Shown piece by piece: positions 9,173 to 64,000 of a stretch of DNA of 64,000 bases (positions are counted from its first letter, which is position 1; every line of letters starts with the position of its first letter). The notes beneath the pieces are model-generated. The model was given only the letters and a program-made list of their open reading frames with translations. It did not search any database and had not been told where the DNA came from. Made by a program: the position numbers and the translations under genes. The DNA is from Amoebophrya sp. A120. Lineage: Eukaryota > Protista > Dinoflagellata. The stretch is from NCBI GenBank assembly GCA_905178155.1, contig CAJINV010000010.1:186001-250000 (forward strand), in the 5' to 3' direction.

Positions 9173-10275
9173 TTATTTCTTCTTCCCCTCTTCGTCATCC
9201 ACCTCAGTGCAGGTGGAGCAGGTGGTGCTGTCGCTGCTTTTGACGGAGCATGTTCTTGGCGTGATGTCGTTATCTGCAGCCGAGCATAAGGTATTGTTTT
9301 TGTTCGTATTACTTTTTCCTTTTCCAATCTCGATCGTGTTTTCAATCTTTTCTCCCACCGCCGTTGACCTCGTTTTCCACACCAGGAACAAACACGTCAG
9401 CATTGGAATCCAGTACGAGTAGAGCGGATGCGGGTACCACGGAATTTCTGGGTCCGGGAGCCGCTGCTGGTTCCAACCAAGGAGCTGGTGTGTTTTATTT
9501 TTGTTTGGTGAGCGAGTAGATCACGCATGACAGAACAGGGGAAACACAGTGGCAATTTAGTATATTTCTGCAATTACATACAAGTAGAAACACACGACCT
9601 CCGAAGTAGTAACAAGCAGTACCGACGTCCACAGCGGAAACGATATATGCCACTGGATGTGCCACTGCGCGTATTTTTTCGGATTTGGTTCCACTCTTCG
9701 GTAATACCTCGACATCGCAAACGCGAAATACGCGTGCACCACTCCCATGATCCCGCAAAACCCGCTGAACAGGTCCAGAACTCGCTCGAACAACGCCACG
9801 TAGAGGTACAAGTAGCTCCCCAGCACCGCAAACACCGTGTCGACGAAGTGGCTCCAGTATCCTGTGCAAAAAGTATCGCACTCGTATAAATGCATTGCAA
9901 ATTTCCTCAGCATGAGAAATAAAATTTGTAATGCAGATTTGCGGTGGAAACAAGATTTGTAATGCTAAGCTTGCACTTGTACGAGTACGATACTTTTGCA
10001 CAGGATATCCAGCTCGGCCTTGCGAGCTCCAAATAGTCCGACCAGAAGGAGACCCAGGCCTGGAGGAACCAGTAGTACGGGGCGAGTTGGCAGAGGCCGA
10101 GGTGGTTCATGATGGGGAGTTTGCGGGCGATGAGCTCGGGATCGTTCCAGAAGAGGTAGATCAGCGCGTAGAACCAACAGGAAACGGCGTAGACGTAGTC
10201 CTTCTGGATCAGGGGGCGCCAGCTGGCCGGAACCCCGGACTTCTTCATGTCCTCCAGCGTCTGGAGGAAGGACAT
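9173..10275 (-). CDS. Multipass membrane protein, ~277 aa, 3 exons; HxxWH motif weakly suggests CREST-like superfamily
   Basis: Exons 10275-10009, 9853-9599 and 9484-9173 join in frame (PSW|SHF, TSE|LLG). Intron 1 is an introner, intron 2 (9485-9598) is GT-AG. Several hydrophobic segments. Confidence 0.75.
9858..10007. mobile_element. Introner family A (150 bp)
   Basis: TIR TATCCTGTGCAAAA(A)GTATCG; DR TCCAG on both sides. Confidence 0.9.
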
Positions 10276-10964
10276 TTTGACGAAGAAGTAGGTGTTGATG
10301 TGGCGCGGGTTGTTATGAGCTACGTACTTTCTGGTCGTGCAGCTGCTCCTGCTGTAACTTAGAGTCTCTATGATGATCTAACTACGGGGGTAGTTTTACG
10401 GAAGGTCCAAGAACGCAGCTGCTAATGGTGGCCAGGGCCACATCTACAGCTTAGAAGACTTACTTAGACTCTCTTGTTGGGCAAAAAACGTCACACATAG
10501 GTAAAAGGTCACGGAGTGCAAATGCGGAAACGGACACCGATACGTGATGCAGAATAAATGAGGTCCTGGAGGAACAGAAATATTTGTGCTGGGTGAGGCG
10601 GGATGAGGCAAAAAGACTGACAAAAAGTTTACTTCTCGCTGAGACTACCAGACGCTCGCTCGCGGTCGCAATATGAAGGTTTCCTCGCACGAAGTAAGCA
10701 GACAAAACAGATCATCATCAACATGAATGAAAGCCTATCTCTCTTCATGACTTCTTCGTCTGAGCTCCTTTCGCTGTTGATAGCAAGGCTGCTCCTGCTC
10801 GTGTCCTCGGCTATCTAATCAATAGCTGACGGCCCCGATCCCGAACTCTGACAAATGGATACAAAAATAAAATAGACTTTATCAGACACGACAGCATGCG
10901 CCAACTACACTTGATGAAGATAGACGAAGAGCAGACGTCGTCGGGCCCCCTTCTATCTTCGATA

Positions 10965-12030
10965 CGCGGCCGCATGCAGGGCGAGCAACTGAATGCGCCC
11001 GCTCGCACGCCCGCGGCGCGGCAAGGGTTGCAACGAGGCGGGGCGCCACCAAGGCGAACACACAACCAGGGCCGGCGGCCAAGGCAAACGACGCCGCGGC
11101 GCAGGCGCCAAGTCCGTAAGGAAGCGAACCCGCCCGGCCGCCGCCCGCGCGGCGCAAGGATGAAAGGCGGGCGCGCGCCACACACCCGCCTACCCCTACG
11201 GCCAAGCAACGGCGACGCACGTGGATGGGGGGGGCCCACGCTCGCAGCATGGCCCCAGGGCTTCTCGCTACTCGCGCGCCGCTGTCTCCAGGTAGGCCCT
11301 GAGAAAAAACAAAGCTGGAGGGCGCCCGCGCGGGCGCGCGTGCATGTTTGGGAAGGGGCCGCCCGGCACTCGTTTGCTTGCTTTTAATTTGCCGGCACCC
11401 GCGCCGCGGCCCGCCGCCTTGCCTTCCGGCTTGCGCGGGTTTCGCGCACCGTGGCCAGGTTCTGTAAATCACACACCGAGCACGGCGAAAGCCTGCGCCT
11501 GAAGCCCGGGCAGGGACAGGGCGCCGGGACGCTCGCCAAAGTTTCACCGCCACCCCGATGGCGGGCCGCCGGGCCACCACGGACAACCAGGCGCGCGGGC
11601 GCCCCGAAGAAAACGGCCGCCCTAGGCAACGGCGGGGAGCCATCCAATTCCGGGGGCCGGCTCGAAGCCTTTCCACCTTGCTGCGCCCGCTCCCTCCCGG
11701 CGCGGCGTTGGGCTTGCTACCTAGCAACAACCTCACCGGCCCGCCTTCGCGCGCGGGTCGCCGCCGGGGTCTCCTTTTCAAATCGTAGGCAGTTCAGGAC
11801 GCATTCGAATCCGTTCCGGGGAAAACTCCCGCGCGTCGATTTGCAAAGCCTCCGCGGGACTTGCTGCGTTGCTTCGCGCGATCCACAGCGGCCGCGATCT
11901 CGGCCGCGCGCGCGACTTTGCGCCCGCGTCCCTCACTACGGCGCGGGCGCGCATAATCGCGCGGCGGGCAGGCGCGGGCCGCCCAATTACAGTTAGCCGG
12001 TGGCGCTGTGGCCGCGGGTGCTGGGCCAGT
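10965..12030. other. GC-rich intergenic island
   Basis: Abrupt CGCG/GGCC-rich block with only low-complexity R/A/G/P ORFs; limits approximate. Confidence 0.7.
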
Positions 12031-12365
12031 GGGTGCGTAGTCCCCTGTAGATGTCAACGACGCCTCCTGCTGAAGCGGCTTGTAACAAATACTCCTGCAC
12101 TGCTGGACTCAGCCGAACACACTAGAGGAGGGCGTGATCGCGGGAAAGCCCTTCCCGGGTACGAGCTTGGACATCTTAGTAAGTACTTTTGTTCAGCTCT
12201 GTCAGTGTCGTCAGTAAAAATAGTGCGAAGTGGATATCGATATCGTCACAATTACGGACCACCTGTGAAGATATGAAACAAAGCTAAGTCATCAACTGAC
12301 ATCACGATCACCGTCGCATCATCTTCAAAAAAGCCATCCTCTCGTCTCCTCCTCGTCGTCCCATC

Positions 12366-14378
12366 TCACGCCGTCTCCTGTCCCACCTGCACTCGCGCTT
12401 CCATCATACTTCCCACCGCCCCGTACGGCCCTTTCCGCACATACAGCTCCAACATTTCCAATCCCTGTTCATCCAGCAATTGCCGGCACACTTCCGTCTT
12501 TTCCAACAAATTCTTCACAAACAAATGCTTCTCCACCCGCCCGTCGTGCGTCGTTTCCGAGCCGAAATCCAGCAGAATCTGCCTTATTTCGTCCGACTCA
12601 ATCAGCATCCTCGCGCAGCTGAAGTCACAGGCGAGGTTCGCGAGTAACTGGTACAAAAACGGCCTTAATTCCGCATTCAAACTCTGTTTCGTCAATAACT
12701 CCAACGCCGGCCGGATCACGTGGGGGGCGATTTTCAGATTCGCTTTGGACTCTTGGTTTTTCTCCGTACTGGTCGTCGCAATGATCCAGGCGACCAACCC
12801 TGCTTTGCAGATTTCCGGATTCGTGGATTTCGCTATCGCCCCCTTCGCGAACTCCACCCAGTTTGACTCCACTACCGCGTTCTTCTGGCTATGGAAGCGT
12901 CAGGATCGAAATCATCAAAGTTGAAATAGTTTGTGATGCATAAAACCGATACCAGTCGGAAGCCCACTTATGAAGCGGCGCATGACAAATTTTCAGAGCA
13001 CCGGAGTCCAATTTGTCGTGCTGTTTGGGCACAGAAGACCGCTTTTGTCGTGCTACTCTAGTAGCGCTATTCCAAACCCTAAACAGGCTCACAATCGGCA
13101 TCACTTGCCTTCCCGGCAAGACAGGCGCTTCATGCTTTGCATTTTATGCATGGCAAATCATTTCAACTCTGTCGATTTCAAACCTGACGCTTCCATATTG
13201 GCTGTTGGGGAAGTGCACCTGAAACACCGCGCCGAACATTTTTAACAAGTATCCTGTGCAAAAGTATCGTACTCGTACTAATTGCAATCATGCATGACAA
13301 ATCTTGTTTCTTAGCGAAATCAGCATTACAAATTCCATTTTTCCTTCTGGAAAAACTTGTATTGCGATTTATACTAGTACGATACTTTTGCAATGCATAA
13401 CAAGCAGAGCTTCGCGATTTCGTTCGTGTTCGGGGCGGCGAGGAATTCTTCCACGTACTTTAGAATCAACTGCTCGTACAAATCGTTGAAATAGTTCTCC
13501 GGCTCTTGTTGTAAAATGAAGCAGCAGAAGAGCACGCACATTGGCGCGATCTTCGGGTCTAAGGAGAGTTGCATATTATCTCCCTCGGTCAGTTCTTGTT
13601 TGATCAAATTCGGCAGGTTTTCCGTTAGTAATAATTTGCGTCCGTATCTGCTCGTCCCCAACTGCTCAAATAGCTGCACCGCATTCAGCTTCAACAAGAT
13701 ATCCTCTGTGAAATACGCTTGGACTAGAAGTTGAAATGCGGACTTCGGCACTTCTACGTCCGCGGAAATCAAGTCCGCGACGAGTTGTAGATACCGGAAT
13801 TTCTTCTCGTCATCCTCCGTTTGCGCGGACACGAGGAGGGAGAAGTCCTGCGAGTTGTGTTCTTCAGTATTGACTAGCTCCACTCGTTCTTTCACCCCAG
13901 TTTCGCAGAGCAATTTCGTCAATAAATTCGCCGTCTTCAAATCCTGCTTCAACATCCAGGCGAAGTTGTCGAATTTCAACAAATCGGCAGTGATGAGGTT
14001 GCTCCTCGCTTCGACAGCGGTGTCCCCATCTAACGACAGCAGTAATTCCAAAACCGGTTGAATCAGGTTTGCCTGCTCCTCAAATTTCTCCGCGGTGGCT
14101 CTGTTTCGCCCGGACGTTGATAGTGGTTTCCACAATTTCGTGACGAAGGTTGCGAATTTGTCCCAAAGCTGGCTGTACTGGAGCAGCCGTTTGAGAACTT
14201 GTAGTCGCTGGACGTCGGACAGGTGGTCTTTATTGTTGTTTTGGTTCTGTTGCGGCGTGGTGTCGGTGAGGTAGTTGAGAATGTGGGTGTTTTGGACCAA
14301 TTCCATCGCGTTTTCGACTGTGTCCGGCGACCGGAGGAAGTCCGCCAGGGTGGACTCGCGGGGAGAGAGGGCGGACAT
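12366..14378 (-). CDS. PSMD5: 26S proteasome assembly chaperone PSMD5/S5b (Hsm3)-like, ~514 aa, 3 exons
   Basis: Exons 14378-13400, 13244-13198 and 12884-12366 are in frame. Motifs FRYLQLV, DILLKLNAVQLF and LYVRKGPY resemble PSMD5 from memory; length fits. Confidence 0.75.
12890..13197. mobile_element. Introner family B (308 bp, orientation 1)
   Basis: TIR TATGGAAGCGTCAGG..GAAATC..CA.AGTTGAAAT; DR CTGGC/TTGGC. Confidence 0.9.
13250..13399. mobile_element. Introner family A (150 bp)
   Basis: TIR core TGCAAAAGTATCGTACT; DR ACAAG. Confidence 0.9.
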
Positions 14379-15194
14379 GGTCTTTGGTGATTGGGAGTCT
14401 TTTGCTTTGTGGTCTTGTTGGGAATTCTTGGGAAAATGAAAGTGGTATACTCAGAAGAACTTCTAGATATTAACGCCAAGAAGAGCTCTTGTTGTTGATG
14501 TTCAACCCATCGTCGAATCCATGTTCGTGTGTACTGTCCTCTCGAAGTTGTTCAGTTCCATATACTTGGATTAGCTAGTGGATATGTTGGTGAACCGCCA
14601 TCGTGAAATTCATTGTATCGATCCGGTCCATCGAGAAGTAGATCAAACATCAACAAGCCAAAGCTATTTCAGTTAAAATCGGATGTGGGAGGTATACATA
14701 GCCGAGGAGCTGCTGTTTGTTGTGATTTAGTGTTGGGGGCTCGAACATAAAGCGTTAATGTTGTTGATCGCAGGTACATTTCAAACTGTCTTCAGGCACA
14801 ATTTCGGCCGTGGGGCTAGGGGTAGTGACAAAGCAAATCTTCATATTAAGTGATCATATTAAGCACGGTCGAAATACAGGGAGGAACATCACAACTATGG
14901 CAAACTGCCGCAACTTGTTTCGGAAAGAACTGCGCGAGCAAGTCACTTTTTCCAGTTACACGACACAGCAAGCAGACTGCTTGCTTTCCATCTATGGCAG
15001 CTGGCGAGCAGTCGTCGGACCAGATCATGCCCCCAACCCGCCTTCGGAGACCTACAAGTACGCTGCGCCACCAGCCACAACAAACGGCCTGGCGCGCGAG
15101 GCCGCATGCACGCTGGCACAGCCAAGAACAATAAGACACCACACGCCACACCACTAATGGCAGATGGGCAGGGCGGGAGTCAGTCTGTCACAAA

Positions 15195-16010
15195 CACGGC
15201 CCGGCTGCGCTGGCGGGACGGGGAGCAAAACTGCACCAACACAGCCGCCGAAGCTAGCCAAGGCTGAGGCTGGCGGCCCACAGGCAGCCGCAGACCAGCG
15301 GGCGCGGACGCGGGGGGCGGAACCGAAGCGAAAACAACCGCCCCGCCCCCTCTCGGGGCGGCCGGGCCGGCGGGCCGCCCGAAGGCCCGCCCCCGGCCCT
15401 AGGAAGCCGGGGCGGGCGCGCGGGCTTCACACCATGCCGCCGGGGCTAGCAGGGGGGGCGGTAGCCGGCAGGGCGCGGGCCGCGTCTCCTCGAACTGATC
15501 GCGCGAATCAATTTGATTGCGCCGGGCCGGTGCGTGCCGGGTTTTTTGAAGGCTTCGCCAGGGCTTTGGCTCGCGTACGTGGCCGCCACTTCCGGCCGAC
15601 CTGCCTCCCCGCGCCAAAGAGGGCGGCCGCCCCGCTAGGCCCGGCGCCAGTGCCCGCGGCGCGCCGCCCTACCGATGGCCCCCGCGGCGCGCGCGAAGGC
15701 GCGGCGGGGGCAGGGCGGAGCACGTGCGCAATCGCTTCGGCGGCGCAGCGATCCAAACAAGGGCGGCCCGGCGGCCAAGAAACCGGCGAAGCCCGAGCCC
15801 CGCGCGAGCTCGGAACCTCACGAAACCCCCCGCCCCCGCCCGCCAGCCCTTGGGGAAGGCCTCCGCCCTCCCGAGTCACAAAGCCGGCCGCCTCCGCCTG
15901 CGCTTCGTTCGGTCGGCGGCCCTCCTCCGGCTGCCCGCCCCACCGGAGCCACTGCGCCAGGCCTCGCCACAAGCCTGCGGCGGCTGGAAGACCACGCGCC
16001 GGCGCTGTCT
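15195..16010. other. GC-rich intergenic island
   Basis: Composition shift; no credible protein. Confidence 0.7.
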
Positions 16011-16830
16011 TGGCATCGCCTACAGGTTTTCTGCTTCACATCTCACTGGAAGCCCGCCTGCGTCTCTTTGGTGTCCTCGAAAAAAAAGGAACACAACGAG
16101 AAGGACGGCGCGACGTTGTGCGCGTGCCTGTCGATCGGACGACGAGTCTCGGCGCTGCGGTTTTATTACCAGTGCGCTTCTACTAGCTCTAATGAATACC
16201 CATGTCGTCAACACTGGTGCACAGACAAGTCGCGGTTCTTCTTTTTCAACAACTCAATTCTTGTTTGTGTTTTTATTCTCAGTCAAACTTTCTGCATCTT
16301 GGACTGTCCTGTGGATTGGTAGAAGTATAAATTTCAGCGACTCCTGCGCCGGCGACGAGAGTAAAAACAAAAAAAACTCCCTGGCGAAAAAACAAAAAAG
16401 TAACTCATCCATCGGCCTCAAATACGCAGTCGAACTGCCGCCGGAGGTGCAGTGGAATAATTTGCAATTCGATAGCGCGTTCACGTTCTTCAACCGCATT
16501 GAGGAGAGCCGAAAAGTCGTTAAATTTCAAATGTGTCCGTACCGTTCTCGTATTGTAAGTAGGTGACGCACCACGCCGACGCATTCGCATCAATTGCTAT
16601 GTGGCAAATAGGGCTGTCGACTGGCGGTGGCGCTGATTCGGTCTACATAACTGCTTTACCGGATCAAAACAAGAGCGCACCTTCGCCGGCGAAGCGACAA
16701 ACTACAAAAAAGAAAAATTACAAAAACGTAGTTAAAGTACTTTGTATTTACTTGTACAGTACTTCTTGAAGAAAGACCTCCAGACATCAAGAGCAGTTAC
16801 TTCCCCATCCTAGTTCTTCGTCCTCTAGGT

Positions 16831-17404
16831 CTATTGCGCCCGACTCACAAATTTCATTTCCTCCGACCCCACCGCTACGTGGTCGCAATACTGACAAATC
16901 CCGTCTACAATCCACGGCAGCACCTCCCTCTGCCCGTTTTCCGGGTAGCTGATGCAGTTGGTGTTCTTGCACGACAAAATTTCAACAAAGTTCGACGCTG
17001 CTCCTTTCTCCGAATCTTCCGGGGTGGTTGCCGTAGTCGCCGTGATTTTGCTCGAAGACGTTGAAGAAGCTGCTGGGGGACCGCAAACCTGCAGTTTCTC
17101 CCCGTCAAAACCCGTTTTCAACACTTTCCTCAGCCCCTCCTCCTGGTCAAACCATCCGCCCAGCAACCCGAGCAAAATCGTCCGCACAAAATACCCGTTC
17201 CTCGATTGCGCGTCCCACCCGTTCTATGGATTGCAAAAATGTCTGGGTCTGGAGTCTTGTGATGCAAGAAAGGGAATAGTGAACTCACTATAATGCGCTG
17301 TCAAGCATGACAAGTTTTTTTCATGGTTCTGAGTTGCGTACTCCGCATCACAAGCTGCGTTTTTGCATGACAGGGAGGAGGAGCTCTTCGCGGCCATGCA
17401 GCAC
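16831..17404 (-). other. Duplicate last exon of the ATCase gene plus truncated family C introner at the contig end
   Basis: Matches the region starting at 26616; runs into the N gap. Confidence 0.85.
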
Positions 17405-17504: not shown

Positions 17505-18957
17505 CTTCGACTACACCTAGCACGGGACTACGTAAAAGACTTGCGTTATATCAGTACAGATATCAATCTAGCGGATGGATTGACGAAACCACTTCCAGGA
17601 GAGAAGTATACTCAAATCTTCAAAGCTCCTTCAAGAAAAGCTAATGAAGTATTTGCGAAAGCTCATTTTGTTGATTTCAATAATCTCTAGGATTTATTGA
17701 GGCGAATTTCACAAGAATTCATCACATCAAAGATTTCTCGAGATGGTTTCAGGTCCATTCGGAAGGGGGAGTGTAGGTATGATCAAGAAACACGACCTAA
17801 ATCGATCTTGACACACCGTCCCGCTCTGAGTGCAAAATTGAAATCACGATGTAAATCAAGATGAACTGATGATGATTCAAAATGAGGTCTAACCGAAATC
17901 ACGATGTAAATTTGATGGTGACGATCAACGATTGTTGATCTGATTTTAGCGTATACTATGGCGATTCGAGACTGATTTTGAAGTACCCCAAAGCTTGAAT
18001 GTTTACCCGCAGGCTGTGCGTTAGTACCATTCAGATTGATTGCAACTAGAAACGCCTTCAAACAGGGCCTATTTACACTTCACTCAAAGATGACCAGTGT
18101 TCAAATCGCCCGCGTTTCTTGCGTTGTTGATTGTCTTCCGACACATTTCCATTTATGTGGCTAGTCAAACAGGAAGACCTCGCAATTTTCGAAGTCCTTT
18201 TTTCATCTTGATGTCCTTTATTGAAAAATTTGTGCAAAGTGTGCAAATGCTTTCGCGATTTTTGGGCCTCAAAAAAATGCATTCAAGGGGGGGGCATAAA
18301 CTAGGGTTAAGGGCACACCCAGAGCAGAGATTATTTGGGCCTCCGAAAGGTCGAGATGATCACTCCCGGAGACCCAACGCCCCCGCTCCTCACACTAGTG
18401 AAAAGCACTAATTAAGCCGCGCCCCAGTACCTTGCTCCAACATCTTCTTAAGCCGTTTTTTCATCTTGATGTCCTTTATTGAAAAATTTGTGCAACTTGA
18501 TTTGCGCTCTGGTGCTGTTTTTCTCTTTACTACGGAGTGGCATCTACCATGCGCGTTGATGCTAATGCCAAAAAAAAAAATGCGTCTGACTAAAATAACT
18601 GAATGCAACAATGAAGTTCCACGCGAAGATGAAGTAGGCTGAGACTGTGCGCAGCTTTGGTCTTTTGCAGTGAGTGTATATGACTAGGCTGGTGACCTCC
18701 AGCACGAGTTGTTTTTTCATGTTCGGCTCTCACTGGGAGATCAGGAGGAAAATTTGAATTTCTGCATAGCAATTTGCTACGATGTGAAGATGGTCGGAAA
18801 CTCTGAAAGTTGCTCTGTACTCGCATTTTGTTGCAGCCCGGGTGGTCGTTTTCAGAGTCACAATTATGATTCAGCTGTGTCTTTCTTGCTCGTCTTCTTC
18901 AAATGTCGTTGGAGAAACCGTACGTGTGGATTGCAGGAGGTACTGGAGGTGTTTCTC

Positions 18958-20060
18958 TTATTTCTTCTTCCCCTCTTCGTCATCCACCTCAGTGCAGGTG
19001 GAGCAGGTGGTGCTGTCGCTGCTTTTGACGGAGCATGTTCTTGGCGTGATGTCGTTATCTGCAGCCGAGCATAAGGTATTGTTTTTGTTCGTATTACTTT
19101 TTCCTTTTCCAATCTCGATCGTGTTTTCAATCTTTTCTCCCACCGCCGTTGACCTCGTTTTCCACACCAGGAACAAACACGTCAGCATTGGAATCCAGTA
19201 CGAGTAGAGCGGATGCGGGTACCACGGAATTTCTGGGTCCGGGAGCCGCTGCTGGTTCCAACCAAGGAGCTGGTGTGTTTTATTTTTGTTTGGTGAGCGA
19301 GTAGATCACGCATGACAGAACAGGGGAAACACAGTGGCAATTTAGTATATTTCTGCAATTACATACAAGTAGAAACACACGACCTCCGAAGTAGTAACAA
19401 GCAGTACCGACGTCCACAGCGGAAACGATATATGCCACTGGATGTGCCACTGCGCGTATTTTTTCGGATTTGGTTCCACTCTTCGGTAATACCTCGACAT
19501 CGCAAACGCGAAATACGCGTGCACCACTCCCATGATCCCGCAAAACCCGCTGAACAGGTCCAGAACTCGCTCGAACAACGCCACGTAGAGGTACAAGTAG
19601 CTCCCCAGCACCGCAAACACCGTGTCGACGAAGTGGCTCCAGTATCCTGTGCAAAAAGTATCGCACTCGTATAAATGCATTGCAAATTTCCTCAGCATGA
19701 GAAATAAAATTTGTAATGCAGATTTGCGGTGGAAACAAGATTTGTAATGCTAAGCTTGCACTTGTACGAGTACGATACTTTTGCACAGGATATCCAGCTC
19801 GGCCTTGCGAGCTCCAAATAGTCCGACCAGAAGGAGACCCAGGCCTGGAGGAACCAGTAGTACGGGGCGAGTTGGCAGAGGCCGAGGTGGTTCATGATGG
19901 GGAGTTTGCGGGCGATGAGCTCGGGATCGTTCCAGAAGAGGTAGATCAGCGCGTAGAACCAACAGGAAACGGCGTAGACGTAGTCCTTCTGGATCAGGGG
20001 GCGCCAGCTGGCCGGAACCCCGGACTTCTTCATGTCCTCCAGCGTCTGGAGGAAGGACAT
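18958..20060 (-). CDS. Duplicate of the multipass membrane protein gene
   Basis: ORF translations identical to 9173-10275. Confidence 0.7.
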
Positions 20061-52438: not shown

Positions 52439-53008
52439 CAAATCTAAGAGCTAGTCTAATTATCTGTTTTATACGTTCATCCGACGTGACAGATTATAAT
52501 ACTTCGCAACTGCTACTGCACTTGCTTCTCATAGACAGTGCTTCTCTCGGAACGCAAATCGCTTTGATTCTTCCGCAGCGGGAATGTGGTAAAATCAATC
52601 GGGTGCTCGCTTCTTCGGCAATGTGGTAAAAATAAAATCAAAACTAGTAAATGTTGAAAAAACAAAATAGCTATAACTTGTCAAAACTAATCATGTTGAA
52701 AACTAAAATCCCAAAGGGAAGTTTGGCAAAACTAATTATGAAATCAATAAAGATAAAGATGATAGAAAAGACATCAGCGAGAATAAAGAGGCGTGTCCTG
52801 CGATAACTTTGTCTGGCAGTAAGCAATCACACACAGATAGTTCGAGCTACCTAGTGCAACCACATGCGAAATCGAGGACATTCTTATCCTGATTGATGTA
52901 ACGCGACAAAATGCAAGCGAGTATTGGAAAATGTCTGTAGTCGGATGATGACGCTATTGCACATCATGGATGGCGATAGAGATGAAGAAGTCAGAGCCAC
53001 ACTATAAC

Positions 53009-56000
53009 TTAAAGGAGCGCTTGGTTCATCAAGTCGAGAAGTTGTCTGGCGCGCTCTTGCTGGCCATTCTCCACATAGTAATTGAAAAGGAAAAGGAAGG
53101 TCGTTGCGTCAGGCCCTCCCACATGTTCGTCCTGAGAGAGCTGCTCTAAGACTCTCGCAAGGTCCTCGCTGATCTCAATGTCGCTTCTCGCGTCGCGGCC
53201 CGCGTTTTTTACGTGCGCCCTTATCATAACGTTGTAGGGACCGACATCCCGCACCACCCCCGCGCGGTTCATCCTTTCGAAAATACGCTCCACACCCTCG
53301 GGGTTGCCTCCCTCGGCGAACGCGCTCATTACCGCGGTAAAGGTGAAGACGTCCGGCTGCAGGCCTGCGGCCTCCATCTCTGTCAGAGTTTCCTCCGCGG
53401 CTTGGGTATTGCCACCCTTAGCGCGGGCATTGGCCAAAATGTTGTAGCTGACGACGTCCGGGCGCAGGCCTGCGCGCTCCATCTTCTCCAGCGCCCTCTT
53501 TGCGCCCTCAGCATTGCCACTCTTAGCGTGGGCAGTGGCCAAAATGTTGTAGGCGAAGGCATTCGGCTTCACGCCTACTTCAGTCATCCTCCGTAGGGAG
53601 GCCTCTGCGCCCTTCCAGTTGCCACATTTTGCGCAAGCGCTCATCAGGGTGTTGTAGCTGACGGCGTTCGGCGCCATACCTGCGTCGACCATCTTTTGTA
53701 GGGCCTCCTCTGCGCCCTCAGCATTGCCGCTTTTCGCGTAAGCGTCCATCAGGGTGCTGTAGCTGACGACGTTTGGGCGCAGGCCTGGCGCGCGCTCCAA
53801 TTTTTCCAGAGCCCTCTCTGCGCCCTCAACATCGCCCCTCTTCGCGTAAGCGCCAATCACGGTGTTGTAGCTGACGACGTCCGGGCGCAGGCCTGGCGCG
53901 CGCTCCAATTTTTCCAGAACCCTCTCTGCGCCCTCAGCATCGCCCCTCTTCGCGTAAGCGTCAATCACGGCACTGTAGCTGATTTCGTTCGGTTTCAAGC
54001 CTGCAGTCTCCATCCTTATGAAAGCTGCCTCCGCGGCTTCAACATTTCCGCTCCTAGCGTAGGAACTGATCAAAGTGTTGTAGGCGGCGCCATCCGGTGC
54101 CACGCCTGCGTCGATCATCCTTTGTAGGGCCTCCTCTGTGCCCGCAACGTTGCCGCTTTTTGCGCAAGCGTCCATCAGGGTGCTGTAGCTGACGACGTTC
54201 GGCGCCACACCTGAGTCGATCATCTTTTGTAGGGTCTCCTCTGCGCCCTCAGCATTGCCGCTTTTCCGGTAAGCGTCCATCAGGGTGCTGTAGCTGACGA
54301 CGTTCGGGCGCAGGCCTGCGCTCTGCATACTTTCCAGAAGCCGCTCCGCGTCCTCAGCGTTGCCACATTTCGCATAAGCGCTGATCGCAATGTTGTAGCT
54401 GCGTTGGTTCGGTTTCACGCCTGTCGCCATCATTTGGCCAAGAACTCTTTCGGCGCTCGGGCCGTCGCCACATCTAGCGTGCTTCTTCATGAGCAAGTTG
54501 CACTCGTGGACACTCGGCGCCACGGTTAGCATGCTGTTGAAGATGCTATCTGCGCCGAGAGCATCGCCCTCCTCGGTGCATTTTTGCATCTGCGTCCCAA
54601 ACATCGAAACCGGTGTCTTGAATAATCCAGTGTATTTGCTTGTCGGTTGTATGAGCTGCAAGCATGTCTGGATCCGGGAACTTGTGAGCAGGTTTGTGAA
54701 TGGTGGGCGCACTGCGTTACGCAGCCGCGCATAACAAGTTTATTCTTAGCCTTTATGTATTGCGCTTCCCAAATGAAAAACTGCATTTTTGCATGACAGG
54801 TAAGATGCTGCTTTCCTGTTCATGCATTAGACATTTCAGGGTCATGTGAGACAAGCATGACAAGAAGCTTGCGCGCCTCCAGACCCAGACATACAACTTG
54901 CACTTGATACAACGAGCACAGTCGCGAGCGCCACGTATGCGTTGCAAATGTGTCTGGGTCTGGAACAAGATTAAAGCTTTTCATGGTGCTCAGTCTCGAT
55001 CTCAAAATAAAAATCTGTGTTGCATGAACGCCAAAATTTGCCGACACCAGGCGGATTTTTCATGCGGAATATAATCAATATGCAAATGCATGAGGAGGGT
55101 CGTCTCGCCAGATCTGCGATGTTCCTGCACGCATTCCAGACAATGTGAATGCGTGCGGTCCGCGCATGACAAATCTCGCACTCATCTTCCAGACCCAGAC
55201 ATACACATATTTGCAATGCATAACCGGTCCCCCAGCTGCATTTCCACCTTTCCCGACAGACAGGCCGTCGCCTGTGGAACGCATAAGCGGTCCCGCTCCA
55301 GCTGCATGCTCCGCTCCCCCGCCAGCCAGGCTCTCGCTGATGGAAATCGAAATCGGTCCTCCAGCTGCATGCTCCGCTTCCCCGCCAGCCAGGCTCTCGC
55401 TGATGGAAATCGGAATCGGTCCTCCAGCTGCACTTCCACCTTTCCCGCGTCCCACGCGCGACGTGGATCTACGACGAGACTCCGGCCCTGTGCCGCCACC
55501 TTTGCCGCCGCTGCCTCGTCCGCGTCCCGTTCCCTTTATCGAACGACAATCAGCGCCACGTATGCATTGCAAATGTGTCTGGGTCGGGAAGAATGGAGCT
55601 TTTCATGGTGCTCGGTCTCGAGGATCTCAAAACAATCTGTATTGCATGAGCGCCAACATTTGCCAAGTTCTGGCTAGACAACAGGCGGAGTTTTCATGCG
55701 TAGGCATGAGGAGGGTCTCGCAACAAGATCTGCGATGCTTCCGCACGCATTCCAGAGAGTGATTGCGCTTGCGGCTGCGGTCGTCGGCGACACGCATGAC
55801 AAATCTCACACTCTTCCAGGCGCACACATATTTGCAATGCGTAATCGGTTCTCCGGCTGCAATTTCGCCTTTCCCGCATCCCACGCGCGACGTAGAGTGA
55901 TGAGGAGACGTCGCCGCCGGCCGACTCTGGGGCCCGGGCGATAAAGGCCTTGCGCAATGCCTGGTGTGGTCCCTTCTTCTGGACCAGGCCTTGAGCAATT

Positions 56001-56780
56001 TCTCGGCGCCATCCACATCCCTTTGCCGGAAAAGCGCCTTTCGCAACGATTTGTATTCGTGGTCCCCAGGCCGGCGGCTCTCGTTTCCCTCCAGCATTCT
56101 GAAAAAACACTTGGTCGCCTCCTCTAGCTTTCCTGCGGCTAGCAGATTTAGCACCTCGGAGCCTTCGCCACTTTTGGTAGATTCATCAGCCCCCTCCTGG
56201 CTGCCGCGAGGAACGTCCCCGCCGCTGCCTCCTCCCCCCGTCCTGTTCCCTTCATCGAGCGCGCCAGCTCCCATCTTGTTGCCCTTGCCGCTATTGTTGC
56301 TCCTGCTTGCGGGCCCAGCAGACGACCGCAACTGCACGGCCGCCACAGCCGGGAGAAAGTAGCTGGTAGTGCCTCGCGTCGTTTCAGAAGTTCCCTGTCC
56401 TCCCTATGAACTGCTTAGGTGTGACAATCTCAAGCGTTGCAATAGAATCTGGATTTCGCATTGAATAAAGAGCATGAGGAACATGGTCATGGATGCAGCC
56501 AGAGCTCTGCGCTTTTCGCAATACAGATTTCGCCAGATTCTCATCGGGTTTGAAGCTCCTGAACTTGTCATGCGCGTCAATTTATCTGTGACAACAGGCT
56601 AGATGCTGGACTTTTAGCAGGTTTCCATAATTCTATTTGTAACACTTGAGTTTGTCACGTCTAAGCACGCCATACTTTCAGCAGCGCTGCGAAAAATAGT
56701 TCTCCGTGCAAGTAGAAGACAGACACGCAACCTCCACTGGCAGAAGTTGCAAGGACGCTACGAAGGAAGCTGCGGGCCAT
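53009..56780 (-). CDS. Pentatricopeptide repeat (PPR) protein, ~883 aa, 5 exons
   Basis: About 13 35-36 aa repeats (PNVVSYSTLMDAYAKSGNAEGAEEALQKM). Upstream exons join in frame after four introns. N-terminus MARSFLRSVLATSAS. The 5' model is less certain. Confidence 0.88.
54650..54909. mobile_element. Introner family C-like (260 bp)
   Basis: TGTCTGG.TC / CCAGACCCAGACA arms; DR lost. Confidence 0.75.
54936..55222. mobile_element. Introner family C-like (287 bp)
   Basis: TIR TATGC.TTGCAAAT; paralogous to 55561-55843 including flanks. Confidence 0.8.
55561..55843. mobile_element. Introner family C-like (283 bp)
   Basis: Same GCGCCACG left flank as 54936. Confidence 0.8.
56405..56674. mobile_element. 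Introner (270 bp, singleton family)
   Basis: 30-bp IR TATG...TGCTTAG..GTGACAA.CTCAAG; DR CTCCC/CTTTC. Confidence 0.8.
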
Positions 56781-58767
56781 TTTTTTGCCGATAATACACT
56801 GAATTGAGTGAGTGAATGACTACTACTTAATAACTGCGACGAACGGCACCGGGCGCGATGCTCTAATTCTATGCTGCTTCTGCTTCTCGTTTGCACTGGC
56901 AGCAAGAAAGAACGTAGAAGTAGAGGGCGAGAGCCTACTTGTTATATAGAGCAATAATATTGATTTCCTTCGTGACTAACATACAAACACGGAAGCCACG
57001 GTTTTTTTAGCAGGATGCCTCGGACAAGAAACGATCGAAGCGAATAAAACACCTCCCAGCACTCAACGGTCTGAAAAACAAATATGCTTATTTTGAGCGA
57101 CAAATGCAAATCGAGGTCGTGTCTTTGTTACCAAATAAATCTCGCCTTAATATGATCTTCTTTTTCTTTTTACTACGAAGTAGTTAAAAAGTCAGTGCTT
57201 GTGTACTCAGCGTTCTAGGATTGGAGAAAAAATATTAATATTATGTAAAAAATCAGTATGCAGCTTTCAGCGGCTCCTTAGAAGTTTTGGAGGATAAATA
57301 AACCCGGAAAAGACAAAAGCCCCTGTGACGGCAGTTTGTTTCCTGGTATCGCGATCAATTCTTGTCTGATGAATTTGAATTGTTGACTCAGGCTATTTCT
57401 ATAGTTGCACTCCGGCCAAAGTGATTTATGACGGTTCCGCACGAAATTTATTTCCTTGCCTGCAGCAAGTAGAGAGAAGAAGTCGGCATATTAAAATGCT
57501 ACAACTTTGTGCGAAGTAGTGTGCTAGCTTGACCGATAGCGATAGGAGTCTCCATCAATTTCTATGCTGAATGATCTTCAAGCGAAATTATGATCTTAGC
57601 CTTTTATTTTGAGCCGTTGCAGACCTCGAAGCAGTGCGTTGTGAATATGAACCTCGAGCAAGTTGATCTATTTTGGCCAAAAATCAACAGCAGGACCACG
57701 GGATTTTTAGTCAGCGACGACCGACTACAGAGTTACGCTTTCTTTCCAGGATCATGATCGAGCGAATTTATAATTTCATACCCACGTCGGCGGGCTCTTG
57801 AATTTTTCTTCCATGGGTACTTCGAGAAAAAAGAATTATTTCATCTTGGGACCAAAACTACTGCATCGCTTTTCTTGCAGTCCTTTCCTCATCATATCAT
57901 CGGGCTTCGGATTATCAGAGCTCTCAACCGTGAAAAAGAAAAGTAAAAAAAAACAAAGCCAAACTAGATTGACTTTTACCACGCTGACAGCACTGCTGGT
58001 AGTGCTAGTACCTTCAAAACCGAGACGTCGGATGGTTGTACACCGAGATGACCATGATGCAGCTCCAGCTGCATCATTCGAAAGAAATAATTATATCCTC
58101 GTCCTGGACCACAAAAAAGTGTTAGCCCCGGTTGCTGCACCAGTTGCTTGTTCTGGTCACATTTTGTACAGGAGACAAGAAGACGTCGGCGAGGCGCCAC
58201 GACCGGTCCAAGCAGGCATCTTCGCACTACGCGGTTTTTATAAGATCTTGAATTCTAACTACTCTTCAACTCAATAGTGTACAGTTGTTCCGATGTGTCG
58301 TGACATGGTATTGCACATTTTTGGCATCCCTTCTTGTTGCCAACATCGCTCCATGTCCATGATAATAACTGAAACCATATTAACCAAGCTGTATCCGTAA
58401 GCTACAAAGAAGATTGACAACACCATACTAACGTGAAACTCGTTAGTACAGAGAATCAATTTGAATTTCGTAAAGACATAAGTCGACATAATTTCTTCAT
58501 CGTCGGCTATCCAACTTTGAACACATTGCATGAGGTAGAGTAACGAAAAATGTTGAAATTCTGTAAAATTTGGTAAACGTAAACTGAGATGAAACAAAAA
58601 AGAGTCAATGCTTGTATGAAACGTGTAATCAAAACTTTAAAACTAAAAGTCGGTGAAGGTTCTGTGATTATGAACCAACTATCTGCAGCTGGAAAATCGT
58701 GCACAACCTTGTAGTTGCACTATCTTCGTCGAAAATAAAAAGTTTCAGTTTTCGAGTATTATCCTCC

Positions 58768-61700
58768 TCACTTGTTCGAAGCGGTCGATTTCGGTGATTT
58801 CGATTTCATTTTCGACGAGAGTTTCACTTTTTTGTGTTTCGCATTGGACCTCTTGGCATCGTTCGGTTGAAAAGTGTTGTCTGAAAACTGTCCTTCTAGC
58901 GCCTTATACGCGGCATTCTTCCCCTATCCACAGTAAATTCAATATCCCCGCACACGACGTTGCTGCGCAAATGCAGATTCTGCATGACAGAACTTGCTTT
59001 CAATCTTATTCAGCAGGACAGGTGGCACACTGCTCCAAGGTGGCGAAATCATATTGTAGTCATGCATCTTGTACAACATGTGCGTCGTGTACAGGAACAA
59101 TAAATTTGCATTGCATATCCCGGAGGGTCGGAACTTGGCTAACTTTACCGAAGCTGCGATCGTTTATGCATTGCAAATGTGTCAGTCTGGGTCTGGACAC
59201 TTGTGATGCTAAAGTATCGATGAGTCTGGCGCTTTCAAGTGCAGCCAAGCATGACAAGTTTCTTTCACGCCGTCTGATGCGTATCACGCATGACAAACTG
59301 CGTCTTTGCATATACAAAAAGAAACGCCTTTGCTGGCTACGCAGCACAGATTTTTCAGGAATGCTAGAGATGCAACACAAGTTCCACATATTTTCCAGAC
59401 CCAGGCACATTTGCACTTGATATCGTTTCTCCGTGCAAGACTTCGGACTCGTCCCCACTGGTGTCGCTTTTCCTTCCGCTTTTGCGCTTTCCACCGCTGT
59501 GCTTCAGACTTGCCACTTGCCCTATGAAAGCCTCAGGTTGGAAATCCTCAAAGTGAAAATAATTTGTAATGCAAAAAAACGACTCCAGTTGGAGCACCAT
59601 TTATAGTCGGCGCATGACAAATTTCCCGGGCACTCAAAACGTGTCTGTCATGCTAGTTAGGCAAAGGGGTGCCCTCCTCTCATGCTAATCAGGAGCCCAA
59701 TTCTGAACCCGTAGAAGCACAATAGTCGGCCTCCATTGCGTTCTCTGCAATACAGTCTTTTTGGTGTCGCATTTCATGCATCACAAATTACTTCCACTTT
59801 GAGGATTTCCATTCTGAGGGTGTCATATGCCTGCCGTCAAAGTGACTGCTGTGCCCGCCCCCGAGTTTGCTCGCCCGGGCGCTGGACTGCTCTTGGTTCA
59901 AAGCACTGCCGCGCTGCAGGGCCGAGTATCAAATGCAAATATGTCTGGGTCCGGAAGGATGCAAGATTTGTCACGCAGGTTCTCGATGACCCATGAGGTC
60001 TGGAATGCAGCACCAAGCATGACAGATTCTGTTAGATCGCTATCATGCCTGTCCTGCATGAGAAATTCCCTCTCAACTTACTAAAAAAGGACGGCTGTTG
60101 GTAATCATGCAACGCAGATTTTTTGCATGATTCAGATTTAGCATGACAAGTTGCCATCTTCCAGACCCAGACATATTTGCATTTGATACCGAGGAAGAGT
60201 ACCCCAAATTGCTCACCCGGATCGAGGAGCCTTGGGGGCTCAGTGCGCTTTGTCGCATGACGCTACCGCGGGCGGTGGTCATTCTGGAGCGGCGTTGGAC
60301 CTCCTCGTTCCCCAGCACGGCGTCCAGCTGCAAGGTGAATCCCGCGGGCTTACTGTGCCGCCACAACCCCAGCATGTATCAAATGTAAAAATGTCTGGGT
60401 CTGGAAGAATGCAAGATTTGTCATGCATATTTCTCATGACCCATAATGCCTGTAATGCTTGAACTAGCATCGCAGACTTTTCGAGGGCTTCCTGATGCAC
60501 CTTCCGCATGAGAAATGGCCTGTCTGTGTAGCAAAAACTGTACCCATTTTGCTGGTCATGCAATACAATTTTTTTTAGAGTCCAAAAACAGCATGACAAA
60601 TTGCAATCTTCCAGACCCAGACATTTTTACATTTGATAGCATGAAGTCCCGCACCATACCCACGGTCGCGTTGCTATGGGAGTGTCAGGATTGAAATCAT
60701 CAAAGTTGACATAGTTTCTCATGCACAAAATGCAAGGCATGAAGTGCCTGTCTTGCCGGGATGGCAAGTGAGACAGATTGCGAGCCTATTTAGGGTTTGA
60801 AATAGAGCTGCTTAGAGAGCATGACAAAAGCAGTCTTCTGTGCCCAAACAGCATGACAAATTGGATTCCGGTGCTCCGAAAATTTGTCATGCGACGCTTG
60901 GAAATTGGGCTTCCAACTGGTATCCATTTTATGCGTGACAAATTAAAACTATTTCAACTTTGACGATTTCAATCCTGACGCTTCCATAGTTGCCCTTCCC
61001 GAGCTTCAGCTTCTTGTACACATTCAAATTATACAGATCCGGTTCGGGCACCAGGTATGCATTGCAAATATGTCTGGGAGGTCTCCTTGGCAAAGTGCCA
61101 AGTTAAAATTTTTCTAATGCATATTTTCCATGACCCATGACGTCAGTGATGCATGCTCTAGCACCACAGATTCTGCGAAAGCTTTCTGATGCTCATACCG
61201 CATGAGAAATTATGCCCTCTTTGCTTGGCAAAAACAGGACCGCTTTTGGTGTGCATGCAATACAGATTTTATGTAGGGTCCAAAGGTAGCATCACAAGTT
61301 GCATCCTCCCTGACCCACCAGACATATTTGCAGTTTATACCAGGTCCCGTTTGTCGATGTGTTTGGAGGAGACCGCGGTGGCGAGCCTCGTCAGTATCAA
61401 CTGTAAAAATGTCTGGGCCTGGAAGATTCTGACACTTGTCATGCACGTTTTGCATGAGCCATGAATTCTGTGATGCATACCCTAGCAATACATATTTTTT
61501 GAGGGCTTCCTGATGCGTATTCCGCATGACAAATGCCTTCTCAGCGCAGCAAAAATTGCATTTCCTTTGGTACTCATGCAATACAGATTTTTTTGGAATC
61601 CAAATGCAGCATCACAAGTTCCAATTCTTCCAGACCCAGACACTTTTGCAATCCATAGTTAGATACGGATCCTTAAACCCGCTCCCCTTCAACACCTCTA

Positions 61701-64000
61701 GTGCCTGTACGTCCGCGATCTTGAAAAATATGGGAGAGAGTGTCAGGATCGAAATCGTCAAAGTTGAGAAGATAACTTGTAATGCATAAAATGCATGACG
61801 CGAAGTGCGTGTGTTGCAGAGCAGGCAAGTGAGGCTGATTGTAAGCCTGTTTGGGGTTAGAGCTCGGGCTGCTAAAGTAGCATGAGAACATCGGTCTTCT
61901 TTGCATAAACAGCATGACAAACTGGATTTAGGCACCACCAACATTTGTCATGCGCCACTTGCAAACTGGGTTTCAACTGGCATCCAATTTATGCATGACA
62001 AATCATTTCAACTTTTACTTTACCGATTTCGAAGATCCTGACACATCCATAAAAAATTCCTTCGCGTTAATGGTCTCCGGGATTGCCACGTGTTCCACCT
62101 TGGGAGGCAGCGGTGGTGGCGGTGGTATCAAAATGCAAAAGTGTCTGGGTCAGGAAGATTCTGAGACCTGTCTTCATGCATACTTTGCATGACACAGGAT
62201 GTCTGTAGCGCACGACCCAGCATCACAAACTTTTAGAGGTCTTCCTGATGCCTACTCCGCATGACAAACGCCCTCCCCGCGTAGCACAAACTAGACACCT
62301 CTTGCTGGTCATGCAATGCAATTTTCTTTAGAGTCCAAAGCTAGCATCACAAGTTCCAACCTTCCAGACCCAGACATTTTTGCATTTGATAGGTGGTTCG
62401 TCTTGCTCGGAGGAAGGGGGTATCCTGTGCAAAACAAGTATCGCGCTCGTAGTAATCGCAGTTATGCATTACAAATCTTAATCTAGTTGGTTAGGTAAAT
62501 CCGCATTACAAATTTAATTTGTAATGCTGAGGCAATTTGTATTGCGAGTTGTACTAGTGCGATGCTTTTGCAGTGCATAGGGGGTGAAAGCATAGGTGGC
62601 GGCGGGGGCACATCCACATCGGGTATGGAGGCTTTTGCAGGCGGGAGGTCCGGCTCCGACGGCGTTGAGGGGGGAGCGCTACTTGGGGGCTTGAACTTAT
62701 GGGAGTGTCAGGATTGAAATCGACAAAGTTGAAATAAGAATAACTTGTAATGCATAAAATGCAGCCCACAAAGAAAGTGCCTGTCTTGCAGAGTAGGCAG
62801 GTGAGGCAGATTGCAAGCCTGTTGAGGGGCAGAAACTGAGCTGCTAAAGTAACATGACAAGAGGCGGCTTCCTGACCCAAACAGCATGACAGACTGGATT
62901 TCGGTTCTACCCAAATTTGTCATGCGCCACTTGCAAACTGGGTCACAACTTTCATCCATTTTATGCATCGCAAGCTATTTCAACTTTGTCGATTTCAATC
63001 CTGACACATCCATAGGACTTCACCTTCTCTTTTTTCGGCTTCTCTTCCTTTGCGACCGAGGGTATTTTCGGCTGCTCCTTGTACTCGCCGTCCGACGAAG
63101 TTGGATCCTTGGCGGGTTCTATCCTGAGTAAAAACGTCCCCACACCAGAGTCAGGATGGGGATTTTGCAACACAAACCTAGGAGCTTTGGGAATCACGCA
63201 TGACAAGTTGCGCTCCGCATTGTAGGGCAGGTTAGCAAGTGCAGCCGCATCACAGATTCATCTGCTCATCCTGTTTACAGCATCACAAATTCCAAAACAC
63301 GATTAGAAATGGCACTCATGGGGATGCTCATTACAAGTCTTCGTGTCTTTGCAAATCTGCATCACAACTCTGGGGTGGGGACGTTTTTACTCAGGATAGG
63401 TTCTTCCGCTTTTTCATCCTCCTCGTCGCTCTTGCAACAGCAGCAGAGCAACAGGAGCAACAACAGCAGCAGCACCAAGGCCAACAAAGGCCAGAGCCAG
63501 CAGCGGCATCGTACAAAAAAAGTGCTTCACTGTGATGATTTTGCAAGATCTGCGTCACAAGATTGTTACAGCACATGACACAGAAAATTTGCCACGCGCG
63601 CTTCCCAAGTGAAAACACGCTTAAAAATCCTATGTCTTGCATGTGTAGCAAGACAAACAGTGTTGCGTTCCACTTCCTGCATCGCAAGTTCACGTATGAA
63701 ACACTTTTTTCTTGCGATAAGGGAAAGCACTCCTCCAGGTCAAATCCGCCTTCGTCCGGAGAGACGGTTAGGAGGTCGCTCGATCCATTCGCGTATGCAT
63801 TGCAAATATCATGTCTGGGTCCGGAATAAAACGTGAACTTGTGATGCGGGTTGTGGTCTTACGTTAAATGAATCTGTGTTGGTGTTGCATGACCAACAAA
63901 CGCGCAGCGTTCTTTTTCCCCATGCAAAAACGCCGTTTTTCATGCGGACCACGCACTATGCGACAGAGGTGCAAGAACTTGTCATGCTTGGCTGCATCGT
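58768..64000 (-). CDS. 3' part of a single-pass membrane protein gene split by 15 introners; 5' end outside the window
   Basis: About 417 codons recovered as one stop-free ORF: TM CWLWPLLALVLLLLLLLLLCCCCK, Pro-rich segment, ending KSTASNK*. Exons are about 24-183 nt. Confidence 0.85.
58925..59117. mobile_element. Introner family F-like (193 bp)
   Basis: TATCCACAGTAAATT end shared with the 47430 element; DR TCCCC/TCCCG. Confidence 0.75.
59165..59422. mobile_element. Introner family C (258 bp)
   Basis: DR TCGTT. Confidence 0.88.
59523..59827. mobile_element. Introner family B-like (305 bp, orientation 1)
   Basis: TIR core GGAAATCCTCAAAGTG; DR TGCCC/TGCCT. Confidence 0.85.
59927..60188. mobile_element. 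Introner family C (262 bp)
   Basis: DR CCGAG. Confidence 0.9.
60377..60638. mobile_element. Introner family C (262 bp)
   Basis: Long perfect TIR TATCAAATGTAAAAATGTCTGGGTCTGGAAGA; DR GCATG. Confidence 0.92.
60675..60988. mobile_element. Introner family B (314 bp, orientation 2)
   Basis: DR GTTGC. Confidence 0.9.
61056..61339. mobile_element. Introner family C (284 bp)
   Basis: DR CCAGG. Confidence 0.88.
61395..61657. mobile_element. Introner family C (263 bp)
   Basis: DR GTCAG/GTTAG. Confidence 0.88.
61729..62051. mobile_element. Introner family B (323 bp, orientation 2)
   Basis: DR AAAAA. Confidence 0.88.
62126..62391. mobile_element. Introner family C (266 bp)
   Basis: DR GGTGG. Confidence 0.9.
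62421..62579. mobile_element. Introner family A (159 bp)
   Basis: DR GGGGG. Confidence 0.88.
62698..63014. mobile_element. Introner family B (317 bp, orientation 2)
   Basis: DR GAACT/GGACT. Confidence 0.9.
63120..63398. mobile_element. Introner family D (279 bp)
   Basis: TIR TATCCTGAGTAAAAACGTCCCCAC.CCAGAGT; DR GGTTC. Confidence 0.92.
63507..63719. mobile_element. Degenerate introner (213 bp)
   Basis: IR ATCG.A.AAAAAAGTG.TTCA; DR AGCGG/AGGGA. Confidence 0.75.
63794..64000. mobile_element. Introner family C-like, truncated by the window edge
   Basis: TATGCATTGCAAATATCATGTCTGGGTCCGG. Confidence 0.75.

Follow-up and report, generated by a model that had tools for sequence, protein, structure and literature searches.

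A single 1+4 register for the removal of transposon-like introners from coding sequences of Amoebophrya sp. A120

Results

Genes and introners of the window

We have analysed a 64,000-nucleotide (nt) stretch of the dinoflagellate Amoebophrya sp. A120 (contig CAJINV010000010.1, positions 186,001 to 250,000 of the forward strand; hereafter the window), in which eight genes, all on the minus strand, are interrupted by introners: transposon-like elements that typically begin with TAT, end with ATA and lack the GT-AG borders of ordinary introns. Our principal finding is that these elements leave the RNA in one fixed register, counted from their ends. Two window proteins, one from the PSMD5-like exon and one from the exon at 60190-60372, have 100% matches among the annotated proteins of A120, in keeping with the host strain. 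The genes and canonical introns referred to below are:

12369-14378, minus strand: PSMD5-like gene, 514 amino acids (aa), identical to annotated A120 protein P0001
26619-28871, minus strand: aspartate carbamoyltransferase-like (ATCase) gene, with two introners and two canonical introns
27964-28080, minus strand: canonical GT-AG intron in ATCase, containing the shared 9-mer described below
28265-28392, minus strand: canonical GT-AG intron in ATCase, containing the same 9-mer
43124-49489, minus strand: single 1,685-aa open frame after removal of five elements
53012-56798, minus strand: PPR gene, 889-aa open frame once each stem and 5 nt are removed
58925-63719, minus strand: fourteen-element gene

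The preliminary description of this DNA, made from the sequence alone, had named PSMD5 and ATCase among the interrupted genes, and both identities are supported. PF10508 gives a weak match on P0001 and a match above the cut-off on its homologue P0002, and Pfam confirms an ATCase/OTCase N domain in the second gene, to which two ordinary GT-AG introns had to be added. The 1,685-aa protein has cysteine-rich stretches and a hydrophobic segment, and Pfam gave no match for the 599-aa exon that was scanned. No annotated protein was found for the PPR gene, the N-terminal part of which includes a duplicated segment comprising an element plus its flanks (54936 and 55561).

Elements were detected by a scan for TAT…ATA scored by inverted repeat and direct repeat (DR), followed by homology, targeted searches and inspection. 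The scan gave 25 matches, against 0-2 in each of 8 shuffles; a scan of the window for long elements returned mostly noise. In total we recognise 38 distinct complete elements, covering 12.2 of the 64 kb. With three exact copies and one truncated copy (17225) in a duplicate, and one element cut by the window end (63794), they occupy 43 places, and the some 41 elements counted earlier therefore probably included duplicates. The duplicate in question is an exact 9,618-bp tandem repeat (7720-17337 = 17505-27122) that flanks a 100-N gap and doubles PSMD5 and four elements; it is probably an assembly artefact, an unmerged scaffold overlap. In the following list coordinates are those of the stem (the span of the terminal inverted repeat), sense means the transcribed minus strand, "RNA joint" denotes a contig joint described in the next sections, and "frame" marks elements placed by reading frame only.

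9858-10007, minus: family A, 150 nt, perfect DR; exact copy at 19643-19792; frame
12890-13197, minus: family B, PSMD5-like gene (P0001), DR mismatch at sense position 5; exact copy at 22675-22982
13250-13399, minus: family A, PSMD5-like gene; RNA joint of stem+5 on the exact copy 23035-23184
27010-27262, minus: family C, ATCase; RNA joint of stem+5; truncated copy at 17225-17404
27315-27622, minus: family B, ATCase; RNA joint of stem+5
31584-31733, minus: family A, opposite in orientation to 13250 and 32831; RNA joint of stem+5
31977-32237, minus: family C, DR mismatch at position 1; RNA joint, upstream base retained
32831-32976, minus: family A, sense 5' end TGT, no terminal stem predicted by folding; RNA joint of stem+5
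33026-33299, minus: family C, opposite in orientation to 31977, DR mismatch at position 1; RNA joint
36096-36313, minus: singleton, 4-bp stem extension in place of DR positions 1-4; RNA joint 36090|36314
36580-36799, minus: singleton, DR 3/5; RNA joint, at least 2 upstream bases retained
36910-37144, minus: singleton, sense 3' end ACA; RNA joint of stem+5
37238-37527, minus: family D, DR mismatch at position 1; RNA joint
37893-39919, minus: 2,027-nt element, 57-bp terminal inverted repeat, 8-bp DR; removed as 37889-39920
40389-40541, minus: family A; frame
43228-43540, minus: family B, sense 5' end TTT; frame, weak near the C-terminus
44096-44370, minus: singleton, DR 4/5; frame
44443-44677, minus: degenerate singleton placed by inspection, whose removal fuses two open frames into the 1,685-aa one; frame
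46393-46704, minus: family B, sense 5' end TAC; frame
47430-47580, minus: family E; frame
54650-54909, 54936-55222, 55561-55843 and 56405-56674, minus: four elements of the PPR gene, all with poor DRs; frame
58925-59117, 59165-59422, 59523-59827, 59927-60188 and 60377-60638, minus: first five of the fourteen-element gene, placed by the P0004 match
60675-60988, 61056-61339, 61395-61657, 61729-62051 and 62126-62391, minus: next five, on the same basis
62421-62579, 62698-63014, 63120-63398 and 63507-63719, minus: last four, on the same basis
63794-64000, minus: element cut by the window end, where P0004 departs from the genomic frame

That nearly all elements would combine TAT…ATA ends, a terminal stem and a 5-bp DR proved right for the first two features: the ends are perfect in 31/38, and folding predicts at least 6 terminal pairs in 34/37, within long hairpins (z=-3.9). 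The DR is not universal, because although the adjacent 5-nt repeat is perfect in 20/38 and matches at 4/5 in 9/38, another 9/38 reach 3/5 or less; one element has an 8-bp repeat. A border repeat of 4-5 matches in 5, as expected from the published 3-5 nt, is thus present in 29/38. Under no equivalent shift does any of the 38 allow GT/GC-AG ends, as had been claimed for some of them, and a single one (60377) allows AT-AC. At the threshold used there are five multi-member families (6, 8, 12, 2 and 2 members) and 8 singletons, four families being present in both orientations. Lengths range from 146 to 2,027 nt, with 37 elements below 330 nt; for the 2-kb element, 9 of the 23 listed frames, among its longer ones, gave no Pfam match of any kind, in keeping with the absence of an encoded transposase. 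The family C motif was missing from viral contigs.

Reading frames

The proposal that deleting each element with 5 nt restores the frame was borne out for all 38, yielding 8 open frames of 221-1,685 aa. When one element was retained the frame was truncated in 36/38 cases, and removal of +3, +4, +6 or +7 nt instead truncated it in 37, 35, 38 and 36 of 38 cases, respectively; the test is blind between +5 and +2 or +8. Alignment of the PSMD5-like protein with two homologues continues through both of its introner junctions.

RNA joints fix the cut

Contigs from four runs (X1-X4) of one sample, whose label as RNA is a guess, were aligned to positions 22000-38000. They are transcript-like: GT-AG introns are lost, one loose end carries poly(T) and several intergenic bins have no cover. 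All 12 elements in this interval have a contig joint that skips the stem plus 5 nt, 13/13 when the 2,027-nt element is included, and the two GT-AG introns are missing from these contigs as well. Removal occurs in both orientations, as seen for 31584 against 23035 and 32831 in family A, and for 33026 against 27010 and 31977 in family C. One additional weak joint inside element 36910 (83 nt, one contig, 20 letters on the short side) may derive from another copy.

Because perfect repeats let a joint slide, we express the cut as k, the number of the 5 upstream bases retained in the exon. The junctions with mismatched repeats, singled out in the preliminary description as those that would reveal the cut, do bound it. 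At 22675, the exact copy of 12890 (joint 22670|22984), k is at most 4. Elements 31977, 33026 and 37238 each require k of 1 or more, 36580 requires 2 or more, and 36096 admits only 4 or 5. In the case of the 2,027-nt element, loose ends in X3 and X4 at 37888 resume at 39921, a joint that cannot slide and gives k=4 exactly. This element loses stem+5 (2,032 nt) and not stem+8 (2,035 nt), leaving one extra glycine codon in frame, so that removal does not follow the direct repeat. The annotated protein P0004, a model probably built on A120 RNA, fits the same register over 14 further junctions (k 4-5 at 62698, 3-5 at 63507, at least 1 at 59523), and the model of the fourteen-element gene at k=4 equals its last 417 residues. 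These ranges intersect only at 4, so that on the sense strand the intron reads N-TAT…ATA-NNNN. We conclude with high confidence that the cut lies 1 nt before TAT and 4 nt after ATA (the 1+4 register), acts at the RNA level and is independent of repeat, length and orientation. The earlier idea of a fixed offset from the stem, regardless of repeat sequence and operating in expressed housekeeping genes, is in this way carried by 13 RNA joints and 14 annotation junctions. Elsewhere, X1 cover is missing over most of the PPR gene, and between 54600 and 64000 two other runs, X7 and X8, have no exon cover, which may reflect another strain or silent genes; 18 elements there have no junction from these runs.

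These joints bear directly on three other explanations. The first is that the joints are made by reverse transcriptase, switching templates across the hairpin between short direct repeats, and that the genes are broken. All the RNA evidence is derived from cDNA, and a hairpin with short repeats is a classic substrate for such switching. The decisive joints, however, have no shared bases: a switch through the 8-bp repeat of 37893 would skip 2,035 nt, where the contigs skip 2,032 with zero bases in common. Only 1 base is shared at 36096, the frames are open over 38 junctions, and the alignment of the PSMD5-like protein to its homologues runs through both of its own. We regard this artefact as highly improbable. 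Self-splicing ribozymes are just as improbable: the elements do have long predicted hairpins, but differing interiors, lengths from 146 to 2,027 nt and both orientations are all removed alike, and no Rfam family was matched in the window.

The other explanation, which the preliminary description had offered on a par with RNA splicing, is excision from DNA in some life stage, as with the internal eliminated sequences of ciliates. The ends and duplications are indeed transposon-like, and rare events could remain, X5 joints having been surveyed only among the matches listed. Nevertheless, contigs of the DNA-like run X5, which may be the source of the assembly, show no differences across element-exon junctions and include one whole element, and element depth in X5 (40-49) is close to that of unique sequence (44-54). 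Since the elements are present in X5 at a depth close to single-copy, and since the 1+4 offset and the U at +2 described below track the transcribed strand whatever the orientation of the element, we consider DNA excision very unlikely and no equal of RNA-level removal. The DNA-like contigs keep the elements, whereas the contigs without them also lack GT-AG introns.

Separately, RNA reads of X7 from a differing copy map to 59714-59827, inside element 59523: 252 start at 59714 and 591 run past the ATA end into other sequence. The sequence preceding 59714 in these reads is what we take to be the template-switch adapter; such starts could reflect transcription that begins within the element, cleavage, or a halt at a branch.

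Boundary bases in a second assembly

The family C motif occurs at 155 loci in metagenome contigs, and the 80 of these 155 that were listed all lie on one other assembly. In this second assembly an exact 5-nt repeat flanks 173/239 elements chosen by inverted repeat alone, and an 8-nt repeat flanks 1. With one end mismatch allowed, 244 elements were obtained, 238 with flanks and 152 with a called strand; at the same margin the strand caller was correct in 32/33 window cases. Across the resulting 190 elements (38 from the window and 152 from the second assembly) U at +2 is invariant (190/190), and the other terminal positions vary: +3 three times, +4 five times, -7 twice, -6 twice and -5 seven times. 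Compared post hoc with its mirror position, -5, U+2 differs at p=0.016. Under the rule, GT-AG ends arise in 6/190. A codon likelihood over 26 mismatched junctions of the second assembly, a weak test on junctions selected by the rule, gave 34.3 and 35.0 at k of 4 and 5, against 26.1 at 0.

Two candidate branch points were considered. The nearly constant A at -7 (188/190), also a stem base, was tried as the branch nucleophile, a proposal that is weakened by the 2/190 G variants. For canonical introns a fixed branch point at -8 was considered, and the two in ATCase agree with it; this spacing is not enriched in the window or among the 155 loci, and the candidate was dropped.

Several elements show other relations between their flanks. 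In 36096-36313 and 54650-54909, the latter an element of the PPR gene with a 4-bp stem extension, the DR is replaced by an exact complementarity: the four intronic bases that follow ATA are the reverse complement of those that precede TAT. Over the 190 elements, altered downstream bases pair with the upstream flank in 25/72 cases, against 11 for the repeat base. Three loci (L075:1819-2098, L023:282-591 and L006:2123-2341) have full or partial 8-bp repeats and ends like those of the usual 5-bp elements, which fits a tolerance of 5 or 8.

A shared internal 9-mer

The preliminary description regarded the families as unrelated. This is doubtful, given their common ends, their 5-bp duplication and an internal 9-mer, TTGT(A/C/G)ATGC or its complement, which occurs 96 times in the window, 87 of them inside elements, and is held by 35/38 elements. 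In the second assembly, where the 9-mer was required for detection, it peaks 30-50 nt from each end. Its orientation varies among families, and for this reason it would fit a site on DNA bound by a mobiliser common to the families better than a signal in RNA. Two of the 7-letter cores of the 9-mer do not appear in the main text of Farhat et al. 2021.

Both canonical ATCase introns end CTCAC-N3-CAG and hold the 9-mer, and 28265-28392 has matches of 20-32 nt to element loci; these introns may be old introners turned canonical. The 9-mer is also present in each of the three units of a 136-nt tandem repeat at 51948-52438, which lies between diverged copies of about 700 bp (51109-53083).

Other features of the window

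About 4400-7905, plus strand: broken Copia-type retrotransposon, with integrase-SH3 and RVT_2 matches in separate frames
742-835 and 8359-8452: repeats accompanying the Copia-type retrotransposon
10330-12200, 14450-16300, 28900-31000 and 33750-35000: GC-rich blocks (60-66%) between genes, without mutual similarity
37960-39860: GC-rich block inside the 2-kb element, not similar to the intergenic blocks

The 2-kb element may have captured GC-rich DNA of the intergenic type.

Discussion

What machinery reads the 1+4 register? We give about even odds to a spliceosome without U1, positioned by the stem. This model can be laid out as follows: (i) a DNA transposon, short, non-coding and ending in TAT…ATA, would insert in either orientation, usually duplicating 5 bp. 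(ii) In the pre-mRNA the ends of the element are predicted by folding to pair, juxtaposing both junctions. (iii) The stem plus 1+4 nt is then removed, as the 13 RNA and 14 annotation junctions show, with no boundary base read except U+2; a 5-bp duplication is exactly cancelled, and one of 8 bp leaves one codon. (iv) Catalysis would fall to the U2/U5/U6 core, in which an adaptor that binds the stem would stand in for U1 and for the AG readers. The spliceosome is favoured because the register would yield a true GT-AG intron at NNAGG targets, because U+2 is held on the sense strand, and because the core snRNAs are reported present; N-UAU, moreover, would resemble a GUAU donor.

The paired ends would thus position the cut. 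The term structure-guided, used in the preliminary description, holds in so far as paired ends are predicted in 34/37 elements, and meets an exception in 32831, which has no predicted terminal stem and yet is removed; the pairing may therefore be imposed by a protein.

Several points weigh against this model: (i) the RNA comes as contigs from one sample, with a guessed label, and no lariat or excised product was observed in them; the unambiguous junction at 37893 is one contig end in each of two runs, and 11/38 elements are placed by frame only. (ii) Tested post hoc against all five other terminal positions, U+2 gives p=0.057, and the probability of the pair between U+2 and -5 exceeds 0.5 in only 25/37 folds. 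(iii) The first base of the intron varies independently of the last (chi-square p=0.41), with no excess of G-G or A-C, although a pair between them is said to be required for spliceosomal splicing. Judged as U2-type introns, the elements show GT/GC…AG ends in 0/38 here (6/190 pooled), lack the G-G/A-C pair and keep U+2 alone. (iv) No branch-site consensus was seen among the 190 elements. The variants at -7 and the stemless 32831, noted above, belong on this side too.

These points leave room for a second enzyme system, which we consider possible though less probable than the U1-less spliceosome: a protein endonuclease would bind the end of the stem and cut both of its strands at fixed distances, 1 and 4 nt, and an RtcB-type ligase would join the exons. 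It would account for first, last and exon bases that are unconstrained, and for both orientations working without a strand-specific internal signal. Against it, U+2 is invariant in a strand-specific manner and the register coincides with GT-AG, both of them signs of an origin from the spliceosome; no candidate enzyme was identified. Nor does the geometry agree with that of tRNA introns, where the bulge-helix-bulge has offsets of 1 and 6 nt, with a paired 4-bp helix between two 3-nt bulges; here the offsets are 1 and 4, and the flanks pair for 4 bp in only 2/38. In its favour, a scheme of this kind has been outlined for the nonconventional introns of Euglena. These follow the same logic, with cuts placed 3 nt upstream of a paired motif and 5-6 nt downstream of it, and the authors of that work favour non-spliceosomal factors (Nomura et al. 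2025, PMC12501133).

Whichever machinery acts, we think it somewhat more probable than not that splicing by ruler is general, in that any RNA with ends paired U(AU)…(AU)A would be cut 1 nt before and 4 nt after, with no other signal. Such an activity, whether an adaptor-modified spliceosome or a new nuclease-ligase, would act at 146 nt or at 2 kb and in either orientation. If this is true, transposons with TAT…ATA ends and a duplication of 2, 5 or 8 bp would do no harm in coding sequence, and the invasion would thereby be explained. The substrate rule, N-TAT…ATA-NNNN with only U+2 fixed, predicts exact intron ends and makes the open question of mechanism testable; it can be used for lariat or circle sequencing, for minigene spacer mutants and for annotation.

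The elements themselves are known, and the rule is the contribution of this work. As the preliminary description had stated, non-canonical introners with inverted and direct repeats have been described in Amoebophrya, and in fact in this very strain: the account of Farhat et al. 2021 (PMC7789003) reports inverted repeats starting with TAT, direct repeats of 3-5 nt, many families and singletons, and RNA-supported removal, without a transposase. The objects are the same, and those of the window are likewise dispersed multi-copy families and singletons. Non-canonical introns make up more than 60% of all introns in A120, and their mode of removal is treated as an open question in the literature covered. 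According to the same account, A120 keeps U2, U4, U5, U6 and 83/89 spliceosomal proteins, U1 being undetected. Whereas the legend of its Fig. 3 gives splice sites as variable relative to the hairpin and the border as unknown, here the border resolves to 1+4, independently of repeat and orientation. In its Table S4, T is second in all 18 predominant non-canonical dinucleotide pairs, a pattern that fits the rule genome-wide; this table and a sentence on the position of the direct repeat may partly anticipate the rule, and figures S19-S25 may bear on it. For A25, the ends listed all begin with TT.

In the available 22/58 A120 rows of Dataset S2 of Gozashti et al. 2025 (PMC12130899), automated duplications span 2-5 nt, splice sites have three origins among families, and there is no single register; the families resemble ours in being mostly terminal-inverted-repeat DNA elements of 150-350 nt, about half with non-canonical ends. 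The portion of a 2024 review covered adds no cut register. In the literature covered, leaving aside the figures of Farhat et al., Roy 2023 and Henriet 2019 (Current Biology), no paper gives the rule, and the single 1+4 register is apparently unreported.

Parallels exist in distant organisms, as far as the published accounts covered here go. In hemistasiid diplonemids (PMC12621601) most introns likewise lack GT-AG and have base-paired ends, alongside a near-complete spliceosome. In the tunicate Fritillaria borealis (PMC13326754, PMC11282704) transposon-derived non-GT/AG introns are similarly removed by a modified major spliceosome; that species, however, keeps preferred end dinucleotides and U1 and has a duplicated U2AF, whereas in A120 U1 is reported missing and the first and last bases are free. 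The closest likeness is to the nonconventional introns of Euglena (Nomura et al. 2025, PMC12501133), with their paired ends, fixed spacers, absence of GT-AG, probable origin from miniature inverted-repeat transposable elements and unknown machinery. Euglena belongs to a distant lineage in which circular products are reported, and its signature, N3-CDG…CH'G-N5-6 followed by an exon starting with a purine, is not that of our elements, which read N1-TAT…ATA-N4 with mixed exon bases. The 1+4 register is nonetheless a parallel to the spacer code found there by genetics, and would represent the convergence of two distant lineages on splicing measured from a stem.

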